Positions 9,836 to 44,855 of a stretch of DNA of 64,000 nucleotides are shown here, in pieces. The stretch covers positions 8,254 to 72,253 of IMG/VR virus record IMGVR_UViG_3300032334_001950; one strand, 5' to 3'. Each line of letters starts with the position of its first letter. Position 1 is the first letter of the stretch. This DNA is from a virus. Under the pieces are notes generated by a model, which had not been told where the DNA came from, made no database searches, and was given only the letters and a program-made list of their open reading frames with translations. The position numbers and the translations under genes are program-made.

Positions 9836-11683
9836 TTAGTGGGTCTCCTCCCAGTTCTTACCAATACGGTACTCACCAGTAAACGGGCACTTCAATCCAA
9901 AGTATTCACCGGACTGGCGAATACCATCCACAATGCTCTTTGCAATAAATTCTGAATGCTGGGGACGTGCAAGCACCTGGAGTTCATCGTGGAACCAACC
10001 AACCGGTTGAAAATCCTCACCCGGATCCAACCCCGCTTTCGTTACTGTATCCCAGAAGATACAGGTAGCCTTCTTCATCAGGATCGCCCCCGTAGATTGT
10101 AGCAATTGGTTCAGCGCTGAATGCCTGGAGCGGATCAATAACTTGCGCCCATCAATGCCAACGAGGTGACCATTCTGCGTAATGCGCCGATCGATCAGAT
10201 CTTTTAACTGCTTGATAGCAGGCAAGTTCACATAAAATGTATCAATTGTTACTTTTCCCTGCCTGTACTGCTCATCTTCAGTTGCTTCAGGGCAAATAAT
10301 ACTTCCGGCTTTCTTCACTCCAGCGCCATACAGCACGCCAAACGTCAACCTCTTGGACAGATCCCGTGCTGCTTTAGGGATTTTCCCACTGGCTGGATCA
10401 TACAATCCAAACAACGCAGCATTATGTGCATGGATATCAACGCTCGGATCACTGACCAACCCAGCGTAAACACCCTCATCAAAGTAAGCAAGCCAAGCAG
10501 CTAGCGCCCGTAATTCCAAACCGGAAGCATCGGCACCCACTAGGTCCCATCCTTCTGGGGCATAGAACAAAGCGCGACACTCAGCACCGAAGGGCGCACC
10601 AACACTGGGCACCTGAGAGACGTTTGGATTACTGTGCGAAACCCTACCGCTAACACATGAATTTGTATTGACGTTACCATGAATGCGGCCATCATTGTAG
10701 ACGCGGCAATGATTAAGCCAAGCCTCTTTGCCATCTACAATCTGACCCAGTCGTTTATTGAGCAGTTGATACTCGGCCAGCATTTTTGCTTCAGGATATT
10801 TCTCCCCTAATTTTTCCAGAACATCGTCATCAACTTTGACGTTACCTTTTTCCGTAGATCCAAAAATAATTTCGGGGTAGCGCTGCTGCAACCGTTCTGC
10901 TGTCTGCTGCCTTGATCCTGGGTTAAATACGGTGATCTTGGTTTTAAGGGGCTTTCCTGTTTTAGCGGAGATGCGTTCCTCCTTAATTGGAGGGAAAACA
11001 TCCTGGAGCTGATCGTCAATTTCAGTCCGCCTAGCTTTGAGTACATTGACGAGAGCGTATGCGGCCTTTTCATTGAACGGGAAGCCAAATTTCTCCTGTT
11101 CGGCCATGATACAACAGAACTCGTGCTCCAGATCGAAGGCCCTGGCGCTGATCTCCTGGGTCAACATGTAATTGTACAGCTCCAAGCTGACCAGGGTATC
11201 CCCCTCACAGTAGGTCTGCATGGCTGCTGACCAGTTATCCCATACCTTTTCACCGGGTTCTAGGGGTGCTTCAGCTTTGAATTTGATCTTTGATGTACCA
11301 AGCCGTTCTCCCCAGGCGGCTAAGCTATGGCGCCCTTTGTACTTAGACTCAATATGGGAATACTTAGACTCATCCTCAGATTCAATCTCGGGGAACAGCA
11401 ACCGGCTAACTACCAAGGTGTCGTAGATGTCGCAATCCGGTCTCAGTATGAGATTGGGATACAGTTTACGTAGTACGGGTAGGTCAAACTTCAGCAAGTT
11501 ATGGCCGACCAGTTGCCTTGCCTCTGCAATGTAGTCAAGGCCTGCTTCGATGCTGGGATGCCCCGGTTGGTTCGCACACGAGATCACCTCGCCCGTTTCC
11601 ACGTGGCGCAGAACCAAGCAATGGACGCGATCCAGCTTGTGGAGCAATCCATTGGTCTCCAGATCTAGCACGTAAGCGGTCAT
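9836..11683 (-). CDS. polA: family A (T7-like) DNA polymerase with 3'-5' exonuclease domain
   Basis: Exo motifs DLETNG, GHNLLKFD, YCEGD; polymerase motifs DASGLELR, KRLTFGVLYG, HDE. Confidence 0.96.
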   Translation of the reverse strand: MTAYVLDLETNGLLHKLDRVHCLVLRHVETGEVISCANQPGHPSIEAGLDYIAEARQLVGHNLLKFDLPVLRKLYPNLILRPDCDIYDTLVVSRLLFPEIESEDESKYSHIESKYKGRHSLAAWGERLGTSKIKFKAEAPLEPGEKVWDNWSAAMQTYCEGDTLVSLELYNYMLTQEISARAFDLEHEFCCIMAEQEKFGFPFNEKAAYALVNVLKARRTEIDDQLQDVFPPIKEERISAKTGKPLKTKITVFNPGSRQQTAERLQQRYPEIIFGSTEKGNVKVDDDVLEKLGEKYPEAKMLAEYQLLNKRLGQIVDGKEAWLNHCRVYNDGRIHGNVNTNSCVSGRVSHSNPNVSQVPSVGAPFGAECRALFYAPEGWDLVGADASGLELRALAAWLAYFDEGVYAGLVSDPSVDIHAHNAALFGLYDPASGKIPKAARDLSKRLTFGVLYGAGVKKAGSIICPEATEDEQYRQGKVTIDTFYVNLPAIKQLKDLIDRRITQNGHLVGIDGRKLLIRSRHSALNQLLQSTGAILMKKATCIFWDTVTKAGLDPGEDFQPVGWFHDELQVLARPQHSEFIAKSIVDGIRQSGEYFGLKCPFTGEYRIGKNWEETH

Positions 11684-35899: not shown

Positions 35900-37423
35900 G
35901 TGGCGGGCACAAGTCTCTACAGCGTTTACCGCAGGACTGCGCGTGCTGCAGCAAAACAACAAATTGTAAAGAAAACATCAGATGTAGATGTTGAAAGAGC
36001 AAGGACAGATTTTGCTTATTTTTGTGATGTTGTCGGGGACAAACCACCAGCGGCGCACCACAAGGAGTGGCATAAATACTTGTGTACAGGACAGGATACC
36101 GAATGCTTGATTGGTATAGGTGGCCCAAACGTAGACATACTTAGCCCCCGTGGGTCAGCAAAAAGTACCGTTACCGGCTTGTTCTGCGCTTGGACAATTG
36201 GTGTGCATGCACTACATCAAAAGCCGTTAAAAATCCTGTATATTTCGTACACAGTTGATGTTGCTCGCCCCAAAAGCGCTGCCATCAAGCGGATCATTGA
36301 AGAAAGCAAAACTTATAGAGAAATTTTTCCTATGGTAAAGATTGCCAAAGGAATCAACAGCAACGAATACTGGAGCATTGATTGGAAGTTTGCTGGCGTT
36401 AAATCCACAGGCGAAGAAGAATTTACACTATGCTGCGCAGGCCTAAAAGGTGCTGTTACCTCTAAACGTAGCCATTTATGCGTGATTGACGACATTTGTA
36501 AGTCCGCCGACGAAATAAAAAACCGCGAAATCCGATTGGCAATGGAGGATAACTGGAACTCTGTTATTACTCCCACTATGTTTGAAGGAGGCCGGGCAAT
36601 TTGTCTTGGCACTAGATTTCGCCATGATGATATGCACGGCACCACCTTCATCCCAGAAAAAGATTGGATTCAACTGGTGCAGTCAGCGATCATTGTGGAT
36701 GAGTCAGGAGAGGAATCATCCTACTGGCCAGAAATGTGGTCGCTGGAATACCTGCAAGACCGTCGTCGCCAGGCCCCAATCAGCTTTAGTTTTCAATACC
36801 AAAATCAAATTGTACAAACTAGCGAACTGTCCTTATCTCCTGATTTAATTGTCAAGGGGAAAATACCAACAGAATTTGATCGACTTGGTATCGGCGTAGA
36901 CCTATCTGCAGGTGTCCGGGAACGCAATGACTACAGCGTATTTGTCCTCGGTGGTCGTGTTGGCGACAAAGTGTATGTCATTGATTGCAAACGCATCCGG
37001 CTGATGGGCAACTTGGAGAAGCTGGAGGCAATGATGGAAATGATGTTTGAATGGGGCATCGTTTACAAAGAAGGCACCAAGTATATTCCAACAGGAACCA
37101 GCGTTGACGTGTGGTCCGAGGCCGTAGCTTATCAGGCATCCCTAGAAGCCGATTTCAAGCGTATTTGCCTTGTTGAACACGGCCTTTACAATGTTTTATG
37201 GCACCCGGTCAAAGGTTTTCGTGGAGACAAAGTAGCAAGATTCCGTGGCATCATGGGCCTATTTGAACAGCATAAGATCAAATTCAATAAATACCGTAAA
37301 TTCCAAGCGCTAACGGACGAAATCATCAACTTTGGGGTCAGCTCCCATGACGATACGGTGGATGCGTTAGTTTGGCTATGTAATGGCTTGATGGCCAGGG
37401 GTAAACTAGAACTGGAATATTAG
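35900..37423 (+). CDS. terL: terminase large subunit
   Basis: Walker A SPRGSAKS, Walker B CVIDD, GTRF motif, nuclease GVDLS...HDDTVDA. Confidence 0.93.
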   Translation: MAGTSLYSVYRRTARAAAKQQIVKKTSDVDVERARTDFAYFCDVVGDKPPAAHHKEWHKYLCTGQDTECLIGIGGPNVDILSPRGSAKSTVTGLFCAWTIGVHALHQKPLKILYISYTVDVARPKSAAIKRIIEESKTYREIFPMVKIAKGINSNEYWSIDWKFAGVKSTGEEEFTLCCAGLKGAVTSKRSHLCVIDDICKSADEIKNREIRLAMEDNWNSVITPTMFEGGRAICLGTRFRHDDMHGTTFIPEKDWIQLVQSAIIVDESGEESSYWPEMWSLEYLQDRRRQAPISFSFQYQNQIVQTSELSLSPDLIVKGKIPTEFDRLGIGVDLSAGVRERNDYSVFVLGGRVGDKVYVIDCKRIRLMGNLEKLEAMMEMMFEWGIVYKEGTKYIPTGTSVDVWSEAVAYQASLEADFKRICLVEHGLYNVLWHPVKGFRGDKVARFRGIMGLFEQHKIKFNKYRKFQALTDEIINFGVSSHDDTVDALVWLCNGLMARGKLELEY

Positions 37424-37694: not shown

Positions 37695-39983
37695 ATGAGC
37701 GAATCAAACACAGTCCTAGATGGAATGCTACGTGCAGCCGTAAACCGTGAGTCAAACGGTGCGGCAGACACGATGCTGATAAATTCGCATCTAGGTCAGA
37801 TGAAGATGTTCGGCATCCGACAAGGTGTTGAATTTTACCCCCAGCAAGATAACTTTGGTTCGCAACGGTTTGATTTTATCCAGCAAGTCATTAAATTTAA
37901 TAAGTTAGATGCGCGGTTGGATTCCATTTGGGATCGCTTTTTGGCTTACGGCAAAGGACTTTTTTATATTCGCCCAACCAAGAAGACCTATCGTTTGTAT
38001 TGGTTTGATAAAGACGCCTACCGCACCTATTACACCCCGGAAGGGGAACTTGAAGAAGTTATTATCATTTACCCGTATAAAGTCAAATCTTCGCGTGGTT
38101 TTGGTGGCGTCGGCCTTTCCACGGACAAGCGTTACATGCGTCTACGGATTACGGCAACAGAAATTGAGGAATCTCATAGCGAACAAGAATTAAAGTTTGA
38201 TACGCCTGAGAGCTTTGCGGCGTTAAACAAAACAACCGTAATCAATACACTTGAATTTATCCCATGCGTAGAGGTATTCAATAATCCCGACGCATTTGGT
38301 ACCGAGGGTAGCGGCGAATTTGAATGGCTTGCCAATCAAGTCGTTGCTCATGATGAAATGGTTAAAAATATCCGCGCAAACCTTTCTTTCTTCGGTAATC
38401 CTACACTTCTGTCTTCACGCCCCAAGCAAGACATTATTGAAAAAGCTGAAGGAGACACAGCGCAACGCCCCAGCATTTCTAGCCAATCAGGTTTCCAATC
38501 TGAATTCAGTCTTTCAAGTTCTACTTACAAACAAGATCCGACATCACGAAATGCCCCAGGATATATTGGGCGGCCAGGTTCCGGCATGCGTGTCCCCAGG
38601 GTTATTGCCAACCTGGAGCCAACAGATCGTGTGGGTTTCATCACGCCAAATGCGGTTAGTTCGGAACAATCGCGTTATGTTGACCAACTGCGCTCTGAAA
38701 TCCGCCTAGCGTTAGGTGGAATTGATGATCTAAGCATCCAGAACGTTACTGCAACCGAAATCAAATCGGCCTATGGTCGCGTCAGTGCAACAGCAAAGAA
38801 AAAATGTTTACAACTATACACTTATGGAATTTGTCGTTGTTTTGAGCTGATAATCTTTCAAGAAGAACAAATTTTTCGGAAGACCTTGGCGCAATCATTG
38901 GGGTTGGTTTATCCGATTCCACCGGAAGATCCCAACGATCCTAAGCTGGCACTTAAATTCAAACGAGCTAAGACAAAATACGAAACAACTCTACGGGCGG
39001 GCATTGATAATGTAATTAATACTAAACAAATTCCGGACGGCGTTTTAGGTTTGATTCCCGATGGCGATCGAACCATTTGTTGGCGCTGGATGGGGCCGGT
39101 TTATGAAGACACTCCGCAAGATAAATTAAATCAGTCAATTTTCACGAGAAACCTACAAGAATTAGGTGTTGATAGCATTGAAGCACTGAAGTACCTTTTC
39201 CCGTCCAAAACTGATGACGAGATTGCAGGAATGCTTTCTGGTTTTCCGTTTAGAATGGTCGGGGAAGTACAAAGGGCTTATTCATCGTTTATTGACCTGG
39301 TCAATTTACAGATGAGGACGCCGCATCCGCAGCAACCCAACCTTCCCATGGCTGCGGACCCAAGACTAAATCTCACCCCCTTCCTTTACCGAACTTTAGA
39401 GAGTTTACAAAAAGAGGTAACCTATGCAGGCCGATACCGCAGCGCCGATCCAATCGGCACCCCAGTCTTACCAGACCCAGCCGACCAGTTACGCGGCGCC
39501 GGTAGCCCAGCAAACGGCAGCTCAGGCTCCGATGGTGGCAACAACGCCTCAGTGGGTGGCACCTTACCAGCCGGTGTCGGCCCCAGCCCCGCAAATGCCG
39601 GCCCAGATGGGAGTAACGCCCCAATACCAGCCTACTCAATCGTACCCCCAGGCGTACCAGCAAGCTCCGGTGGCCCAGCCGGTGTCGGCCCCGGTAGCAG
39701 AGAATCCCTACAAGGAAGCGTTCAACCGGGTGGTCGGACTCCTGAGTTCGCCGGTCCAATTCCCCTTCCAGGGTCAACAGTCCGCGCCGAGTCAACCAAC
39801 CGTCCCGGCCAATTACAGTTCACAGCCGGCAACCCAGTACAGCAACAATCCGTACCAGGCTCCGCTGACCTCTATGCCTGGAGCCAGCAGCAACCAGGTA
39901 TCCTTCAGCAACTCTTCCCCAACCTCGTTGGAAATCAGCCGGGAACAGTTGTTGGCAAACGGGGTAAGCCCCAAAAGCCTTGA
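37695..39983 (+). CDS. probable portal protein with disordered C-terminal extension
   Basis: Lies between TerL and capsid; size and IPCVEVFNN...GSGEF / TATEI motifs fit a portal; last ~185 aa are low complexity and overlap the next gene. Confidence 0.75.
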   Translation: MSESNTVLDGMLRAAVNRESNGAADTMLINSHLGQMKMFGIRQGVEFYPQQDNFGSQRFDFIQQVIKFNKLDARLDSIWDRFLAYGKGLFYIRPTKKTYRLYWFDKDAYRTYYTPEGELEEVIIIYPYKVKSSRGFGGVGLSTDKRYMRLRITATEIEESHSEQELKFDTPESFAALNKTTVINTLEFIPCVEVFNNPDAFGTEGSGEFEWLANQVVAHDEMVKNIRANLSFFGNPTLLSSRPKQDIIEKAEGDTAQRPSISSQSGFQSEFSLSSSTYKQDPTSRNAPGYIGRPGSGMRVPRVIANLEPTDRVGFITPNAVSSEQSRYVDQLRSEIRLALGGIDDLSIQNVTATEIKSAYGRVSATAKKKCLQLYTYGICRCFELIIFQEEQIFRKTLAQSLGLVYPIPPEDPNDPKLALKFKRAKTKYETTLRAGIDNVINTKQIPDGVLGLIPDGDRTICWRWMGPVYEDTPQDKLNQSIFTRNLQELGVDSIEALKYLFPSKTDDEIAGMLSGFPFRMVGEVQRAYSSFIDLVNLQMRTPHPQQPNLPMAADPRLNLTPFLYRTLESLQKEVTYAGRYRSADPIGTPVLPDPADQLRGAGSPANGSSGSDGGNNASVGGTLPAGVGPSPANAGPDGSNAPIPAYSIVPPGVPASSGGPAGVGPGSRESLQGSVQPGGRTPEFAGPIPLPGSTVRAESTNRPGQLQFTAGNPVQQQSVPGSADLYAWSQQQPGILQQLFPNLVGNQPGTVVGKRGKPQKP

Positions 39984-40467
39984 GGTAATTGACCATTTTG
40001 GTCCCGATGCTGCTCGCGTACTGAATGAGTATTCTTGCAGCCTTGAAGATCACCTGGTCATCACCAATAACCAGCTGGTGCAGGCTGTAGGTTTGCTGCA
40101 AGAATTGTCCAATGAGCATAAGGCATACGAGATCATCCTGACCGATCCTGATGTCCTTGCTGATTACACTACTCAATTCTTCGGCGAAAACGGCCCCTAC
40201 CCGATCCCCGATGAGGAGACCGGTTATCGGCCTGCCCCTGTTGTAAATACTGGCTATCGTCCTATTCCCACCGCAGCTGCCCCCCAGCAGTTTGAGCGTC
40301 CTCAGATGCCCGTTCCCCCTCAGCCCCAGGCTCAGGGCAATCCTGCGGCCTTCTGGGATAGTTTTGGCACCCTTGCTGATCGGGACCCCGCCAATGCTTG
40401 GCGATATTTGAATGCAGCGCAATCCAACCCCGATGTGTTCCGCCAAAAACTGCTCGTGATGGAGTGA
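39424..40467 (+). CDS. probable capsid scaffolding protein
   Basis: GAGGT SD at 39414-18; P/Q/A-rich N-half, helical core; followed by a terminator; lies between portal and capsid genes. Confidence 0.6.
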   Translation: MQADTAAPIQSAPQSYQTQPTSYAAPVAQQTAAQAPMVATTPQWVAPYQPVSAPAPQMPAQMGVTPQYQPTQSYPQAYQQAPVAQPVSAPVAENPYKEAFNRVVGLLSSPVQFPFQGQQSAPSQPTVPANYSSQPATQYSNNPYQAPLTSMPGASSNQVSFSNSSPTSLEISREQLLANGVSPKSLEVIDHFGPDAARVLNEYSCSLEDHLVITNNQLVQAVGLLQELSNEHKAYEIILTDPDVLADYTTQFFGENGPYPIPDEETGYRPAPVVNTGYRPIPTAAAPQQFERPQMPVPPQPQAQGNPAAFWDSFGTLADRDPANAWRYLNAAQSNPDVFRQKLLVME

Positions 40468-40628: not shown

Positions 40629-41551
40629 ATGCGCCCACAACGTGGTGGCCAACAGCCGCAGGGTTATCAAAACGTTACTCAGGCCCCTGCTGGTTACATG
40701 CAGTCAATGGGGCAACAGCCTGGTGGGGGCGCAGCTCATATGGCTGCACAATATGGCGCCCCAGGGGGCGGCATTCTGGGCCAGGTTTCACAATTCCTAG
40801 CTCAACCCATCGCTGCAGCACAGCTTGGCGCTTACGGTCAAACAAATTCTCCCTCAGCAGGGAATGCTGTTAGTTACGCAAATACTGCGCACGATCCTGC
40901 ACTGCAGCGGATGTCTGGCCCTAGCAATCAAGGCATCTCTTTGACAAACGCGGGGGCGGCACCTCCGGGCGGCCCAGCTGGAGCCGTACCTATTATGGGG
41001 CAAGGCGGCGTCATGCCCGATAACCTACAAGCGGGTTACTTGCACCTCAACATGCCAGGTTCCCCGCTGGGCTCTATGGGCCTACTCTCAAATAATGCAA
41101 CCCGTCGAGCCGAGATTGTTCAGGATGCTATCTTAAGCAACCAACAACAATATATGATGGGGGCAATGGCGCCTCATGGTCCCCTACCTATAACTCAAAT
41201 GCAACAGCAAATGATGATGCAACAACAAATGGCCGCACGAGGGCAGCGTCGATGAATACCGACAAAGCAAAAGCTGCCAGGGATAAAGCAAAAATTGCAT
41301 CTGGCAAAAAAGCCCCGCAGAAGAAGGCAACCACCCCAACTGCAGCGGCAGCAGAAAAGCATCCGGAAGTGGCTGCAGCACTTGCACGCAATGCACTTTT
41401 ATCTGGTGGTATTGCGCCAGAAAGTGCTGGCATTGGCCTTGGTCATTCTGCCGACCTTCAACCCGCAGATGGTGTAGTCAACCCATTCCATAGGATGGGG
41501 CCGATCAATCCGAACACCTATAATCCCGGCAACGTGATCGGCGGTTTCTGA
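40629..41551 (+). CDS. two coupled low-complexity proteins (40629-41255, 41252-41551)
   Basis: ATGA overlap; one is G/Q/M-rich, the other K/A-rich. Confidence 0.6.
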
Positions 41552-41584
41552 TTTTCTTATTAACAGGCGTAAGTAAGCCCCTGC

Positions 41585-41715
41585 TATAATTTTTGCAATG
41601 GGACGAAAGTTCCAGGCCAGTAATGGCGCGAACCTAGACAACTAGATTTAAGTCCATTACGTCCTGGATCTTTTGGGTCCAGGTGTCAGCTAAACCCTTA
41701 CGCTGAATTACCAAC
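41585..41715 (+). promoter_or_regulatory. capsid-gene promoter and structured 5' leader
   Basis: TATAAT 41585-90, then four hairpins before ATG 41716. Confidence 0.55.
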
Positions 41716-43983
41716 ATGTTTATTGATAATGACTTTCCTAAGCTGTTAGGTGCGGAGCTTTATCGCCCCCACCCGGCTTACATCGTCGAAATGGCCGCAG
41801 AACCGGTTGAATAACAGCCGCCTTTTTGAGTAATCAAAAAGTGATAACCCGGTGAATTGCTGGAAACCCTTCTAAAAGAATTGAACCCTACAACGTAATC
41901 AGTAATGATAAGCGTGATAGGTTGAAAAGTTTCAATTGTCGGGCAATCAGCAGCCAAGCTTCCTAGGAATAGGTGGAAGGTTCAACGACTAGGGTACACG
42001 ATCCAGAACGGATTATGAAACCCATTAGCGCCGGGGCTCCCAAAATTGAATGTAATTTTTAAATTTACGTTCAATGGCAAAATCAGAATTCTGGTAAATA
42101 GCTTGTATTGCCTTGGCATCTTTTTTGTATCCGGGCAAATGAAACAAGTTGCTACCATTTTTGGTAAATTCTGATTTGATCGGCAACTCTACGCTTGATA
42201 TTAATTTGATCCATGTTTGGAGTTGTACAGCAAATTTGATTGACGCGGTGGTGATTTTAAAGCGGCGATCTGTTACAGAACCGTCGCCATCCCAAGCCCC
42301 ACGCAAAAAATGAGGCACTAAGTTTTCTTGCAGTGTTGTCGTGATCTCTAAAGTTTTAGATTTATTGGGTAAAATACCCAATTTCATCAAATCTTTAACC
42401 AAGGCAACTCTACTTAAAACCAATGACTTTTGTGGTAATGATTTTTTACCACGTATTGTTGAAATCTTGGTTTGCAATTTTGGGGCATTTGAGCCCAGCT
42501 CGTTGCGAAATCTTTCAAGAATTAAACAATCCTCTTCTTTTAATGCGATGCGAGCAGCCGTCAATCTAGGATTAATATTTCCATCGGTTGCCAATAGACC
42601 AAGAAAATAAGCCTTTCCTTCTGTATCAATTTTTTCAAAATAACGCTCGTTGTAATTGAAAAAAGAGTAAGTTTCGCCGGCTTTATTTTTTCTAAGCCCC
42701 GTCTGCTCAAAAAAAGATAGAAGGTTGAATTTTTTTCTGGCATTGTAAAAAGCAACCATTGATATATTTAGTTCTTTTGCTGCATCAGCATCAGACATCG
42801 TAGCAGAAAGTTCTGCTACCACTTCAAATGAAAGATTTAAGCGATTGTGCCGAGCCATGGGGAGCGTGATATAGTCTGTGCCCCACCGATGACAAAGGTG
42901 GGGAACAATGGATTGGGAAGCTCAATCCTAGCACGTGTTGTTCATGACTTCACCAAACAGCCTGGCCAAACCGTTCAGCTGGACCGGTACCGTTTCTGGG
43001 GTAACCCCGGTACCAAGGCCAACCGTGAGCGTACCCAGGACCAGACCATTGGTACCGCTAACAGCCGTTCCATTGTGAAGGACAAAGTTCTGGTGTCTCT
43101 CCGCGAGTACACTGGTCCTGCCGACCCGAACAATGCCAACGCTCCCAGCACCTTTAAGATTGCTCGGGAAACGCTGATGACCGCTCAGCGCTTGCTGCTG
43201 GACACCGGGAACCTTAACATGTTCCACCAGTCCATTGGTTCGCTGACCCTGCTGGATGACTACCGCCGCTGGCGTGATCGCGTGCTGCTGGACGAACTGT
43301 ATAAGTCCTTCTCACGCGGCCAAGCCTCCGATACCCAAGGTGGTTACTACTACCCCAACAACCACACCAACTCCAGTGGTACCGTTAGCACCTACACTGC
43401 TACCGAATATGCTTCTGAGCGTTACAAGTTTAACGTGAAGAGCGACCTTCTGGAAGTTGTCAAAGGTCTGCGTAAGCGTAACGTTCCCGTCTTCCAAGAT
43501 GGTTACTACCGCTGTATTGCTGATCCCTCCTTCATGAAGGATCTGCGTGCGGACCAAGGCTTCCGTGAAGTTGCGCGTTACCCTGGCATGGGCCAAGGCA
43601 ACCCCATGATGGGCGCCATGGGTCCCAACCAAGCCATCTACGGTGGTGGTCAATACGGCCAAGCTGCTTTTGTGGCTGGTGAACCGATCATGCCTACCGG
43701 CTTTGTGTTTGAAGGTGTTCGTTTCTTCGAATCGACCAACTTCACCAACCTGACCGTCACCTGCGACATCAACGATGGCGCTGGTTCCACGACCCACACC
43801 ACGCCTCCCGGCCTGTTCTTCGGTCCCCAGGCTGTTGGTATCGGTATCGGCGGCCCCAATGCTCAAGTCCTCATTAACAACAACGACGACTTCAGCCGCT
43901 TTATCATCCTGATTTGGCAGCTGTACGCCGGTTTTGCTAACCTGAACAAGGACTTCTGCACCGTCGCATTCACCATCGTTTGA
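41716..43983 (+). CDS. major capsid protein, split: join(41716..41807,42936..43983), 379 aa
   Basis: Exon 1 MFIDNDFPKLLGAELYRPHPAYIVEMAAEP joins in frame to give EPVVVHDFTKQPGQ; strongly biased codon usage; G..FEGVRFFES and FFGPQAVG motifs; position after portal/scaffold. Confidence 0.88.
41808..42935 (+). mobile_element. self-splicing group I intron (1128 nt)
   Basis: P1 with U.G at the 5' splice site; P AATTGCTGGAAA 41855, Q AATCAGCAGC 41945, R GTTCAACGACTA 41980, S TGATATAGTC 42867; P3, P7, P8, P9; terminal G 42935; 8-bp P10. Confidence 0.93.
42025..42858 (-). CDS. intron-encoded double-motif LAGLIDADG homing endonuclease (antisense orientation)
   Basis: AYFLGLLATDG and HFLRGAWDGDG motifs; AT-rich; lies in the P8 loop. 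Confidence 0.9.
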   Translation of the reverse strand: MARHNRLNLSFEVVAELSATMSDADAAKELNISMVAFYNARKKFNLLSFFEQTGLRKNKAGETYSFFNYNERYFEKIDTEGKAYFLGLLATDGNINPRLTAARIALKEEDCLILERFRNELGSNAPKLQTKISTIRGKKSLPQKSLVLSRVALVKDLMKLGILPNKSKTLEITTTLQENLVPHFLRGAWDGDGSVTDRRFKITTASIKFAVQLQTWIKLISSVELPIKSEFTKNGSNLFHLPGYKKDAKAIQAIYQNSDFAIERKFKNYIQFWEPRR

Positions 43984-44000
43984 TAGGAGGTAACTAACTC

Positions 44001-44855
44001 ATGGCTCTCTACAAAACTAATGCTGGCGCCGTACTTTACCCCGGCGATCAGATTAACCGCCTGTCTGGCTACAACAACGAAGGTGTCTTTGGTTGGCCTG
44101 GTATTGAGGCGTATGAAATCGTTGGTTACGTGCCCATCTCAAGCAGCACGGCAGCCAAGACTTTCACGACCATTACCGTCCCTTCACCCGATCGTCGTAC
44201 TGATGACCGCGTGCGTGACAACCTGAGTGCGATCACTGTGCCTGCTTCCAGCAGCCAGCCTTCGTACATCTATGGTGCTTCTATTGCTATTGCTCAGGAC
44301 ATTCCTTCTGGCTCTGGTAATGGCGCCCTGCCTGGCTTCCCTGGCGTGCCTGTGACTGCTGATCTCGTTGGCACCACTAGCGACCTGCTGCTGTTTGGCC
44401 CTGATAACTCCGGCGTCCCCGCTGGTGTTTCTACCGCCAACAAAGCACTTGGTATCGGTAACGCTGTTGCCTACCTGACTGTTGCTTCTAGCGCCCTGAC
44501 CCAGGGTACTAATGCGCTGTCCAACGGTAACGCCACCGCCGGCTCGCTGCCTTTCGCCAGCTCCGTGACCTCTGGTGGTATTCTTGCTGCGGATTTCTAC
44601 AGCTCGATGTTCTACAAGGTCACCGCTGATACCACCTTCGGTGTGTACAGCGTGCTGACGGCTGCCGCCACGACCGCCAACGGTTCCGGCGTTAACATCA
44701 GCGCTGCCAACGTAACCGCCAACAAAACCGGTTACATTGTGTGCCGCATCAACTATCTGCGTCCTGCCGATGCTGCTAGCTGGACTGACATCCAGGGCTT
44801 CATCGACTTCAAGTCGCAGATTGGTGGTGATGACGGTGCCGGCGTGAACGGCTGA
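44001..44855 (+). CDS. abundant virion structural protein (minor capsid or decoration candidate)
   Basis: Strong SD AGGAGGT, capsid-like codon bias, immediately after the MCP. Confidence 0.65.
   Translation: MALYKTNAGAVLYPGDQINRLSGYNNEGVFGWPGIEAYEIVGYVPISSSTAAKTFTTITVPSPDRRTDDRVRDNLSAITVPASSSQPSYIYGASIAIAQDIPSGSGNGALPGFPGVPVTADLVGTTSDLLLFGPDNSGVPAGVSTANKALGIGNAVAYLTVASSALTQGTNALSNGNATAGSLPFASSVTSGGILAADFYSSMFYKVTADTTFGVYSVLTAAATTANGSGVNISAANVTANKTGYIVCRINYLRPADAASWTDIQGFIDFKSQIGGDDGAGVNG

Follow-up and report, generated by a model that had tools for sequence, protein, structure and literature searches.

Group I introns that carry homing endonuclease genes are a textbook case of a composite selfish element, and the means by which intron, nuclease and host gene avoid harming one another have been studied mainly in bacteriophage T4. 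Here we analyse a 64 kb stretch (the window) of the 72,253-base IMG/VR virus record IMGVR_UViG_3300032334_001950, which very probably holds a mobile, subgroup IA-like group I intron inserted in an S-EIVl-like capsid gene and carrying an antisense LAGLIDADG homing endonuclease gene. In phage subgroup IA systems such as T4 td with its nuclease I-TevI, and the Staphylococcus Twort- and K-like introns with LAGLIDADG genes, the nuclease is instead encoded on the intron's own strand. According to the account in PMC2988022, the intron nucleases of T4 have their own promoters, and splicing of the td intron depends on a delay in the translation of I-TevI. Antisense nuclease genes have been described in group I introns of myxomycete and fungal nuclear ribosomal DNA (rDNA), where the sections of PMC3073962 and PMC9548176 devoted to them present I-DirII (intron Dir.S956-2) and I-DsqI (Dsq.L2066) as His-Cys box proteins made from RNA polymerase II transcripts; as told there, these genes have promoters of their own, and the authors raise the possibility of antisense interference with the host transcript. 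Across excerpts of open-access texts including PMC3984707, PMC2988022, PMC3073962, PMC9548176, PMC8393795, PMC5746245, PMC2442088, PMC4853749, PMC6669764, PMC5626475, PMC10286775 and PMC8557907, antisense nuclease genes were found only for nuclear rDNA introns. A search of open-access full texts, with supplements outside its scope, turned up no description of any phage or bacterial group I intron with an antisense nuclease gene, and the words antisense, opposite and orientation are all absent from the review of bacterial group I introns in PMC3984707.

The window element resembles the I-DirII and I-DsqI introns in that its nuclease gene lies in a peripheral loop, on the strand opposite the ribozyme. 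As far as the cited descriptions go, those introns differ in lying in eukaryotic nuclear rRNA genes, in belonging to subgroups IE and IC with insertions in P9/P9.2 or P2, and in encoding His-Cys box proteins whose expression involves RNA polymerase II, polyadenylation and spliceosomal introns, whereas the window element interrupts a protein-coding late gene of a phage, encodes a LAGLIDADG protein, has its insertion in P8 and has an open reading frame (ORF) whose end overlaps the catalytic core. It works like the I-DirII/I-DsqI type without being a member of it. Its core is similar to that of the phage subgroup IA introns, window positions 41843-41991 matching Staphylococcus, Bacillus, Listeria and other phages by blastn. 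Two phage loci have parts of the arrangement. In the cyanophage S-PM2, as outlined in PMC5931967, a group I intron interrupts the highly expressed gene psbA, and both a nuclease and an antisense transcript lie close by; the nuclease, F-CphI, is free-standing, downstream and outside the intron, and the antisense RNA, cfrI, is non-coding, whereas in the window the intron's own antisense strand encodes the nuclease. Likewise, T4 segD is treated in PMC2988022 as a homing nuclease gene running in the opposite direction beside the major capsid gene, with no recognised promoter, but it is an intergenic, free-standing GIY-YIG gene, and the neighbours to which it is antisense are genes 23 and 24. Compared with these systems, the window element appears to be new in three respects: a LAGLIDADG gene takes the antisense position within a phage intron, its end is shared with the catalytic core on the other strand, and genes of this kind have radiated to several sites of a single capsid gene.

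Results

An intron and a nuclease gene share one DNA segment

The Rfam model RF00028 matches the plus strand of the window at 41799-42101 (53.6 bits against a gathering score of 50; E 8e-11 over the whole window), and this is the only group I intron that Rfam reports within it. The match ends early, with the 3' part of the model misaligned, because an 834-nucleotide (nt) insertion splits the model at P8. We took the boundaries from protein alignment, which places the intron at 41808..42935 (plus strand, 1128 nt), with the same boundaries in 17 other loci. The final bases of exon 1 and of the intron are U41807 and G42935, and exon 2 begins with U42936. Joined in this way, the product reads ...AAEPV/VVHDFTKQPGQ (the stroke marks the junction) and corresponds without a gap to the intronless 383-amino-acid (aa) ORF of Synechococcus phage S-EIVl (...AVEPVVVHDFTRQPGQ...), the insertion falling after codon 30. 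An initial annotation of this DNA had proposed the junction GAACCGGT/TGTTGTTCAT, which the gap-free match to the S-EIVl ORF bears out. A search of IMG/VR with exon 2 returned at least 597 stretches, of which the best 80 loci were kept, 3 of these without an exon-1 region; in all 77 informative intronless relatives among these best 80, exons 1 and 2 are contiguous and the intron is absent. The host gene codes for the major head protein (PHROG 1357 'major head protein', E 1e-18). Its exon 1 (41716..41807, plus strand) comprises 30 codons plus 2 nt (GU), the last base being U41807, and its translation, MFIDNDFPKLLGAELYRPHPAYIVEMAAEP, aligns with the start of the S-EIVl ORF and with the 77 intronless loci; exon 2 (42936..43983, plus strand) matches PHROG 1357 and is 72% identical to S-EIVl at the nucleotide level.

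The minus strand of the intron holds a LAGLIDADG homing endonuclease gene (42025..42858; 277 aa, ATG start, two motifs and an N-terminal three-helix extension), and the two strands are fitted to one another at both ends of this gene. The ATG start, complementary to 42856-42858, lies 1 nt from the 3' strand of P8; the same distance is 1-4 nt in 12 of 13 family members, those with a recognisable P8 3' strand upstream, the exception being L097. The gene closes with a stop codon complementary to 42025-42027, and the codons for R, R, P, E and W, counted back from it, are the complement of 42028-42042, so that the end of the gene covers the 3' strand of P3 (P3', 42029-42035) and the 5' strand of P8 (42036-42041). 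The stop occupies the same position in all members, as TAA, TAG or TGA, at a spot that in the RNA is the joining segment before P3'. Across 23 homologues, the C-terminal W-E/D-P/S-R-R hardly changes, R276 and R277 included, whereas the residues just before it vary. Because this C-terminal conservation coincides with the invariant P3' and P8 5' strands, the ribozyme core appears to fix the last five codons of the nuclease. By this reading of the strands, the P8 loop is made up almost entirely of the nuclease gene. The initial annotation had likewise placed the ORF in the P8 loop on the minus strand, with its WEPRR-stop complementary to the P8 5' and P3' strands and its ATG abutting the P8 3' strand, all of which can be read directly from the sequence. 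It had also argued that the gene cannot be read from the capsid pre-mRNA, and this follows from the strand: lying on the minus strand, the gene requires a separate minus-strand transcript of its own.

The antisense arrangement is kept across a family of phage introns

In the protein database, we found approximately 42 close homologues of the nuclease, 51-85% identical, about 276 aa long and all metagenome-derived. A search of IMG/VR with an alignment of homologues gave 79 loci, 18 of which (L084-L101) are close relatives at 53-95% identity. In every one of these 18, nhmmer found that the 5' core of the intron and the nuclease gene lie on opposite strands, the core running up to the nuclease stop, and 17 have the element at the same capsid site, flanked by exons 1 and 2 (L099 gave only a partial exon-1 match). 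Introns of this close family are 1107-1128 nt long; the 5' exon always ends in CCGGT and exon 2 always starts with TGT. A metagenome scan recovered 11 close-family loci, 6 of them identical to IMG/VR loci and 5 new, again with the core on the opposite strand in 11/11. Within this close family, the survey of orientation in related introns that the initial annotation had called for gives an opposite-strand nuclease throughout, and these loci indicate that the antisense arrangement has been kept across two dozen related phage contigs. A collection of species-representative genomes contained no close homologue and two distant matches at 37% identity; the element was therefore not seen in the cellular genomes of that collection. 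One further locus, L111, was rejected as an antisense case, since its opposite-strand core-like match lies upstream of the nuclease gene and is absent from the Rfam scan at E 0.001.

The ribozyme core is complete and shows covariation

To examine selection on the RNA, 13 distinct family sequences were analysed with RNAalifold, using 500 column shuffles and slid partners as controls. RNAalifold recovers P1, P2, P3, P4, P5 with long arms, P6 and two extra helices between P7 and P3'. Across the 69 predicted pairs, 99.3% of cells are paired and 25 pairs are compensatory, values reached by none of the 500 shuffles; when partners are moved by 1-3 columns, 2-7 compensatory pairs remain. P8 is invariant save in two loci: L098 has a compensatory change, C to U at the second position of the 5' strand with G to A in the 3' strand, which is synonymous in the nuclease (GAG to GAA), and L097 has a G.U pair. 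Taken together, these patterns argue that the ribozyme is under selection and that its core is complete.

All helices lie on the plus strand. P1 (41804..41820) pairs 41804-41809 with 41815-41820 (helix 1, 6 pairs, invariant in 13/13) and contains the 5' splice site wobble U41807.G41817, a U.G pair (alignment columns 6/17) in 13/13 sequences; 41810-41816 could pair with UGUUGUU of exon 2 to form P10. P2, a hairpin with a GUAA loop (41822..41841; helix 2), has 8 pairs, 4 of them compensatory. The 5' strand of P3 (41848..41854) pairs with 42029-42035 (helix 3, 7 pairs, invariant in 13/13), as it does in the Rfam alignment. The P4-P5 domain with its extended P5 arms (41858..41952) comprises helices 4 to 8, with 12 compensatory pairs in helices 6 and 8, and P6 (41953..41981) comprises helices 9 and 10, with 4. 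The 5' strand of P7, GACUA (41987..41991), has its partner, UAGUC, at 42872-42876, an assignment made from the sequence; both strands are invariant in the 13. Between P7 and P3' lie P7.1/P7.2-like helices (41992..42023; helix 11, 11 pairs, 5 compensatory), and it is on these extra helices that we use the subgroup IA name, which we take to be the appropriate label. Next come the 3' strand of P3 (42029..42035), whose minus strand encodes the C-terminal P-R-R of the nuclease, and the 5' strand of P8, GCUCCC (42036..42041), whose minus strand falls in the codons for W-E-P. Beyond the nuclease gene are the 3' strand of P8, GGGAGC (42860..42865), also read off the letters, and J8/7 with the 3' strand of P7 (42866..42876; GUGAUAUAGUC), conserved in 13/13 save at 1-2 positions. 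All 7 pairs of the P9 hairpin (42881..42903) are compensatory. A terminal, P9.1-like hairpin, GGAUUG/CAAUCC (42910..42928), was assigned by inspection, with stems visible there by eye in other members; RNAalifold made no prediction for 42910-42928. The intron ends with its omega-G (42935), a G being found at this position in 18/18 sequences. The anatomy proposed in the initial annotation stands, with its coordinates slightly corrected: the P8 5' strand GCUCCC lies at 42036-42041 and the capsid ATG at 41716.

A scan for terminator-like signals flagged 41804-41830 on the plus strand, where the P1 hairpin (CGGTTGAATAACAGCCG) is followed by the U-rich 5' strand of P2 (CCTTTTTGAG). We read this signal as a by-product of P1 and P2 and not as a terminator.

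The nuclease is a double-motif LAGLIDADG protein

The nuclease matches Pfam LAGLIDADG_3 (PF14528; 29.4 bits against a cut-off of 22.5) and PHROG 4645 'endonuclease' (E 1.9e-40), and tblastn aligned it at 32-36% identity with annotated LAGLIDADG or intron-encoded endonucleases of Streptomyces, Staphylococcus and Bacillus phages. Its best match among GenBank phages is 35.7% identical, and the sole capsid DNA match there, S-EIVl, is intronless; the element is therefore in no phage deposited there. The two motifs read ..YFLGLLATDGN.. and ..FLRGAWDGDGS.., and D92 and D192, presumably the catalytic residues as in other LAGLIDADG proteins, are invariant in 23/23 homologues. An AlphaFold model (AF2, 23 homologues in the alignment) has a predicted local distance difference test score of 89 and a predicted template modelling score of 0.82. 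A sequence search of the PDB with the nuclease gave 0 matches; Foldseek, run against the PDB with the model, returned as its best matches I-Tsp061I, the bI3 maturase (rank 4), I-SceI, I-DmoI and intein nucleases including PI-PfuI at a probability of 1.00. The modelled fold is alpha-beta-beta-alpha-beta-beta-alpha, twice over, and the two motifs are those of the monomeric type of nuclease. The LAGLIDADG identity given in the initial annotation is thus backed by family profiles and by the fold search. Ahead of the nuclease core, the model has three extra helices at residues 11-43, where the N-terminal Pfam match to HTH_29, a helix-turn-helix (HTH) family, is weak (E 0.19).

Between the window and L003, the nuclease genes show 55 differences, which fall on codon positions 3, 1 and 2 in the ratio 40/11/4 and cause 13 mostly conservative replacements. 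Nei-Gojobori ratios of nonsynonymous to synonymous change (dN/dS) were computed for 13 pairs, 4 of which had saturated dS; in the 9 pairs with unsaturated dS they are 0.08-0.28. These values point to purifying selection on the nuclease. Homologues P0004 and P0040 are annotated with N-terminal extensions of approximately 25-40 residues that reach into the complement of the intron 3' core. These are probably over-extensions by the gene caller, because the open frame runs on upstream of the ATG in many members.

Related introns occupy further sites of the capsid gene

Intron sites beyond the first are numbered here by residue within the exon 2 product. At site 253/254, three loci (L098, L182 and L180) have introns with an opposite-strand LAGLIDADG_3 gene of 261-284 aa, which, as in the window, runs from the 3' strand of P8 until it overlaps the 5' strand of that helix. 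L180 has a second antisense intron at site 113/114, with a 287-aa gene, and L174 an apparent one near 176/177, where the contig is cut. These antisense nucleases are 27-29% identical to that of the window and have its length and N-terminal extension in common. Related antisense LAGLIDADG genes therefore appear to occupy P8 at two or three further sites of the capsid gene.

Other introns of the same gene are arranged differently. Near residues 57-62, L003 has an ORF-less intron of approximately 263 nt (L003:2339-2574, minus strand of the locus, corresponding to about window position 43100; Rfam 72.9 bits), which is absent from the window, and the introns of L099 and L180 in this region hold a LAGLIDADG_2 gene on the sense strand. 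Because a sense gene is found in another intron of the same gene, capsid introns can do without the antisense orientation. Of 60 more distant LAGLIDADG loci on viral contigs, 7 contain group I matches at the Rfam threshold, 9 in all, and every one of these lies on the nuclease's own strand. Antisense placement thus marks the HTH-LAGLIDADG_3 lineage in capsid-gene introns.

Some of these capsid genes carry several introns, at least 4 in L099 (600-3500) and 3 in L180 (800-3700), with others at L182:1400-3200 and L098:560-1680; a further insertion site was seen near exon-2 residues 107/108. In addition, L114:4286-4451 matches a group II intron domain (RF02004, 89 bits) approximately 1.2 kb downstream of a distant LAGLIDADG gene, on the same strand.

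Capsid gene and nuclease have discordant histories

Relative to the window, L098 is 88% identical in the capsid gene and 55% in both the nuclease and the 3' core, and the L085 group is 72% identical in the capsid gene and 64% in the nuclease; by these comparisons, capsid and nuclease divergence are discordant. The exon flanks were compared over window positions 41798-41807 and 42936-42945. All 18 intron-bearing alleles read CCGGT/TGT (CCG GU/U GU), whereas the 77 intronless alleles (from the best 80 of at least 597; L004-L083) use all synonymous variants at the junction positions. The window and L003 are identical over the 91 positions compared in exon 1 (0 differences), while 13.8% of the upstream spacer and 18.2% of exon 2 differ. 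Junction uniformity and exon 1 identity fit co-conversion during homing, a need for P1 pairing, or both. Since the intronless alleles vary at the junction, many of these natural alleles may differ from the preferred target of the nuclease.

Phage context

At the DNA level, S-EIVl is the sole relative of the window among deposited phages (blastn, 72% identity over the capsid gene), and we describe the window phage as an S-EIVl-like cyanophage. The structural genes form a long plus-strand block starting at approximately 28.6 kb, which includes the terminase large subunit (35900-37423), a portal-sized virion protein (37695-39983), the major head protein and tail fibre proteins, all on the plus strand; the DNA polymerase gene (9836-11683) is on the minus strand. 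Between the portal-sized and capsid genes, the ORFs 39424-40467 and 40629-41255 encode very Q/P/A/G-rich products with no PHROG match, which, judged by position, may be scaffold or decoration proteins. In the deposited S-EIVl genome, the capsid region (L001:2925-4151, equivalent to KJ410740 60784-62010) is annotated with a minus-strand hypothetical coding sequence and a short plus-strand coding sequence. The plus-strand 383-aa ORF in this region (L001:3000-4151) matches the spliced head protein of the window, and the S-EIVl capsid gene seems to be mis-called in the deposited record.

Discussion

From this arrangement we infer cleavage, homing, a nuclease transcript and its timing along the following lines. 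The ribozyme, predicted to be self-splicing, would excise itself from the capsid pre-mRNA and join exons 1 and 2 in frame. When relatives co-infect, the nuclease most likely cuts those of their capsid alleles that lack the intron, around ...CC(N)GT/(N)GT..., and repair would copy the intron, together with the nuclease gene, into the cut allele. The nuclease transcript would start in the complement of the intron 3' core or of exon 2. The antisense orientation would uncouple the nuclease from the late, very strong transcription of the capsid gene and keep ribosomes off the ribozyme strand, and the late pre-mRNA could silence the nuclease message.

Several observations weigh against this account of a mobile intron with an antisense homing gene. 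A consensus scan of both strands over 41000-44200 found 0 sigma-70-like sites, compared with 3.6 in shuffled sequence, and no Shine-Dalgarno sequence precedes the nuclease ATG in the 13 members. Hand inspection of the nuclease-strand upstream regions of these members, in which TAnnnT is expected about three times per 200 nt by chance, yielded as the best candidate in the window TTGTCA-N16-TATATC, the complement of the P9 loop (L9) and of J8/7-P7. This candidate is weak, as its -10 element lacks the final T and its -35 element is unconserved in relatives, reading TT(G/C/T)TCA across members. P3, P4, P5 and P7 have zero covariation support: their strands are invariant in the 13 sequences, and covariation is therefore uninformative for or against those pairings. 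Finally, the uniformity of the exon flanks could stem from shared ancestry of a co-converted tract and not from ongoing selection.

Two other promoter candidates were unconvincing: TATCTT, which is present in most members yet reads TATCAC in the window, and TAGGAT, the complement of the intron 3' end. Upstream of the ATG, non-coding DNA is limited to 77 nt complementary to the P8 3' strand, J8/7, the P7 3' strand, P9 and the last hairpin, beyond which the sequence is antisense to capsid coding DNA. Within these 77 nt, GACUAUAUC, the complement of J8/7 and the P7 3' strand, sits 9-17 nt upstream of the window nuclease ATG; in every site-A member, the J8/7-P7 complement GACTATATC precedes the ATG by 9-17 nt, and similar words precede the antisense genes elsewhere. 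We regard this element as a lead only, toward a leaderless or short-leader mRNA.

More is claimed if the antisense placement in P8 is taken to be an adapted design. An HTH-LAGLIDADG lineage would have spread through one capsid gene, taking up an antisense position in P8 at each of three or more sites; the complement of J8/7-P7 and L9 would serve as the start of nuclease transcription and translation, giving a leaderless or nearly leaderless mRNA; P3' and P8 would double as last codons and stop; and the late pre-mRNA or the excised intron would silence the nuclease once capsid synthesis begins, confining cutting to the replication phase. As a whole, we hold this design to be doubtful. Regulatory coupling, which we judge to be unlikely, would, in the form suggested by the initial annotation, have the nuclease mRNA pair with the capsid pre-mRNA, block ribozyme folding and repress the capsid during homing, or conversely have the late pre-mRNA or excised intron shut the nuclease off. 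Perfect complementarity between the two RNAs would extend over no fewer than 834 nt, P3' and the P8 5' strand among them, and a transcript start further upstream would add the P8 3' strand, J8/7, the P7 3' strand and P9. There are precedents in the antisense RNA cfrI beside the group I intron of S-PM2 psbA, to judge from its treatment in PMC5931967, and in the discussion of interference that part of PMC9548176 gives to nuclear antisense nuclease genes. Yet the empty promoter scan tells against such coupling, as does the sense LAGLIDADG gene in another capsid intron (L099, L180), which makes an antisense partner unneeded; moreover, a weakly expressed nuclease mRNA would be unlikely to titrate the late capsid message.

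A protein kept mainly for another role, as a maturase or as a DNA-binding regulator acting through its N-terminal helices, with its homing activity lost, strikes us as improbable. The high rank of the bI3 maturase among the structural matches, the three modelled helices with their weak HTH_29 match, and purifying selection that lasts over deep divergence, down to 51% identity, would all suit it; on the other side, both catalytic aspartates are invariant, the ribozyme has its own complete core, and the discordant capsid and nuclease histories, with the intron absent from most relatives, fit an element that is still moving. As for a decaying remnant or artefact, be it a chance frame, a dead gene or the inverted segment of one assembly, the metagenomic origin of the window contig is the point in its favour, and the initial annotation had named a remnant and an assembly inversion as the outcomes that would undo its proposal. 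All 18 IMG/VR and 11 metagenome loci of the close family have an intact ORF, placed and oriented alike, and inversion or a chance frame is therefore no explanation for an arrangement found in so many independent contigs. Third-position bias and low dN/dS also speak against decay, and the interlocking of the ORF end with P3' and P8 would not result from merely inverting a sense gene. A remnant or artefact is already contradicted by these data, and we give it almost no credence.

A mobile intron with an antisense homing gene in a bacterial virus would represent a second, independent solution to the conflict between nuclease translation and ribozyme folding. It is also a natural case of a DNA segment that is read both ways, with a catalytic RNA core on one strand and a protein C-terminus on the other. 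Within a widespread group of freshwater and marine cyanophages, the major capsid gene emerges as an intron hot spot, with at least four introns in one gene. For the annotation of viral metagenomes, this matters because split capsid genes, and short contigs that end in such elements, would otherwise be misread. Finally, the enzymes are predicted to be new long-target nucleases, natural variants of which would be aimed at different sites of one gene.

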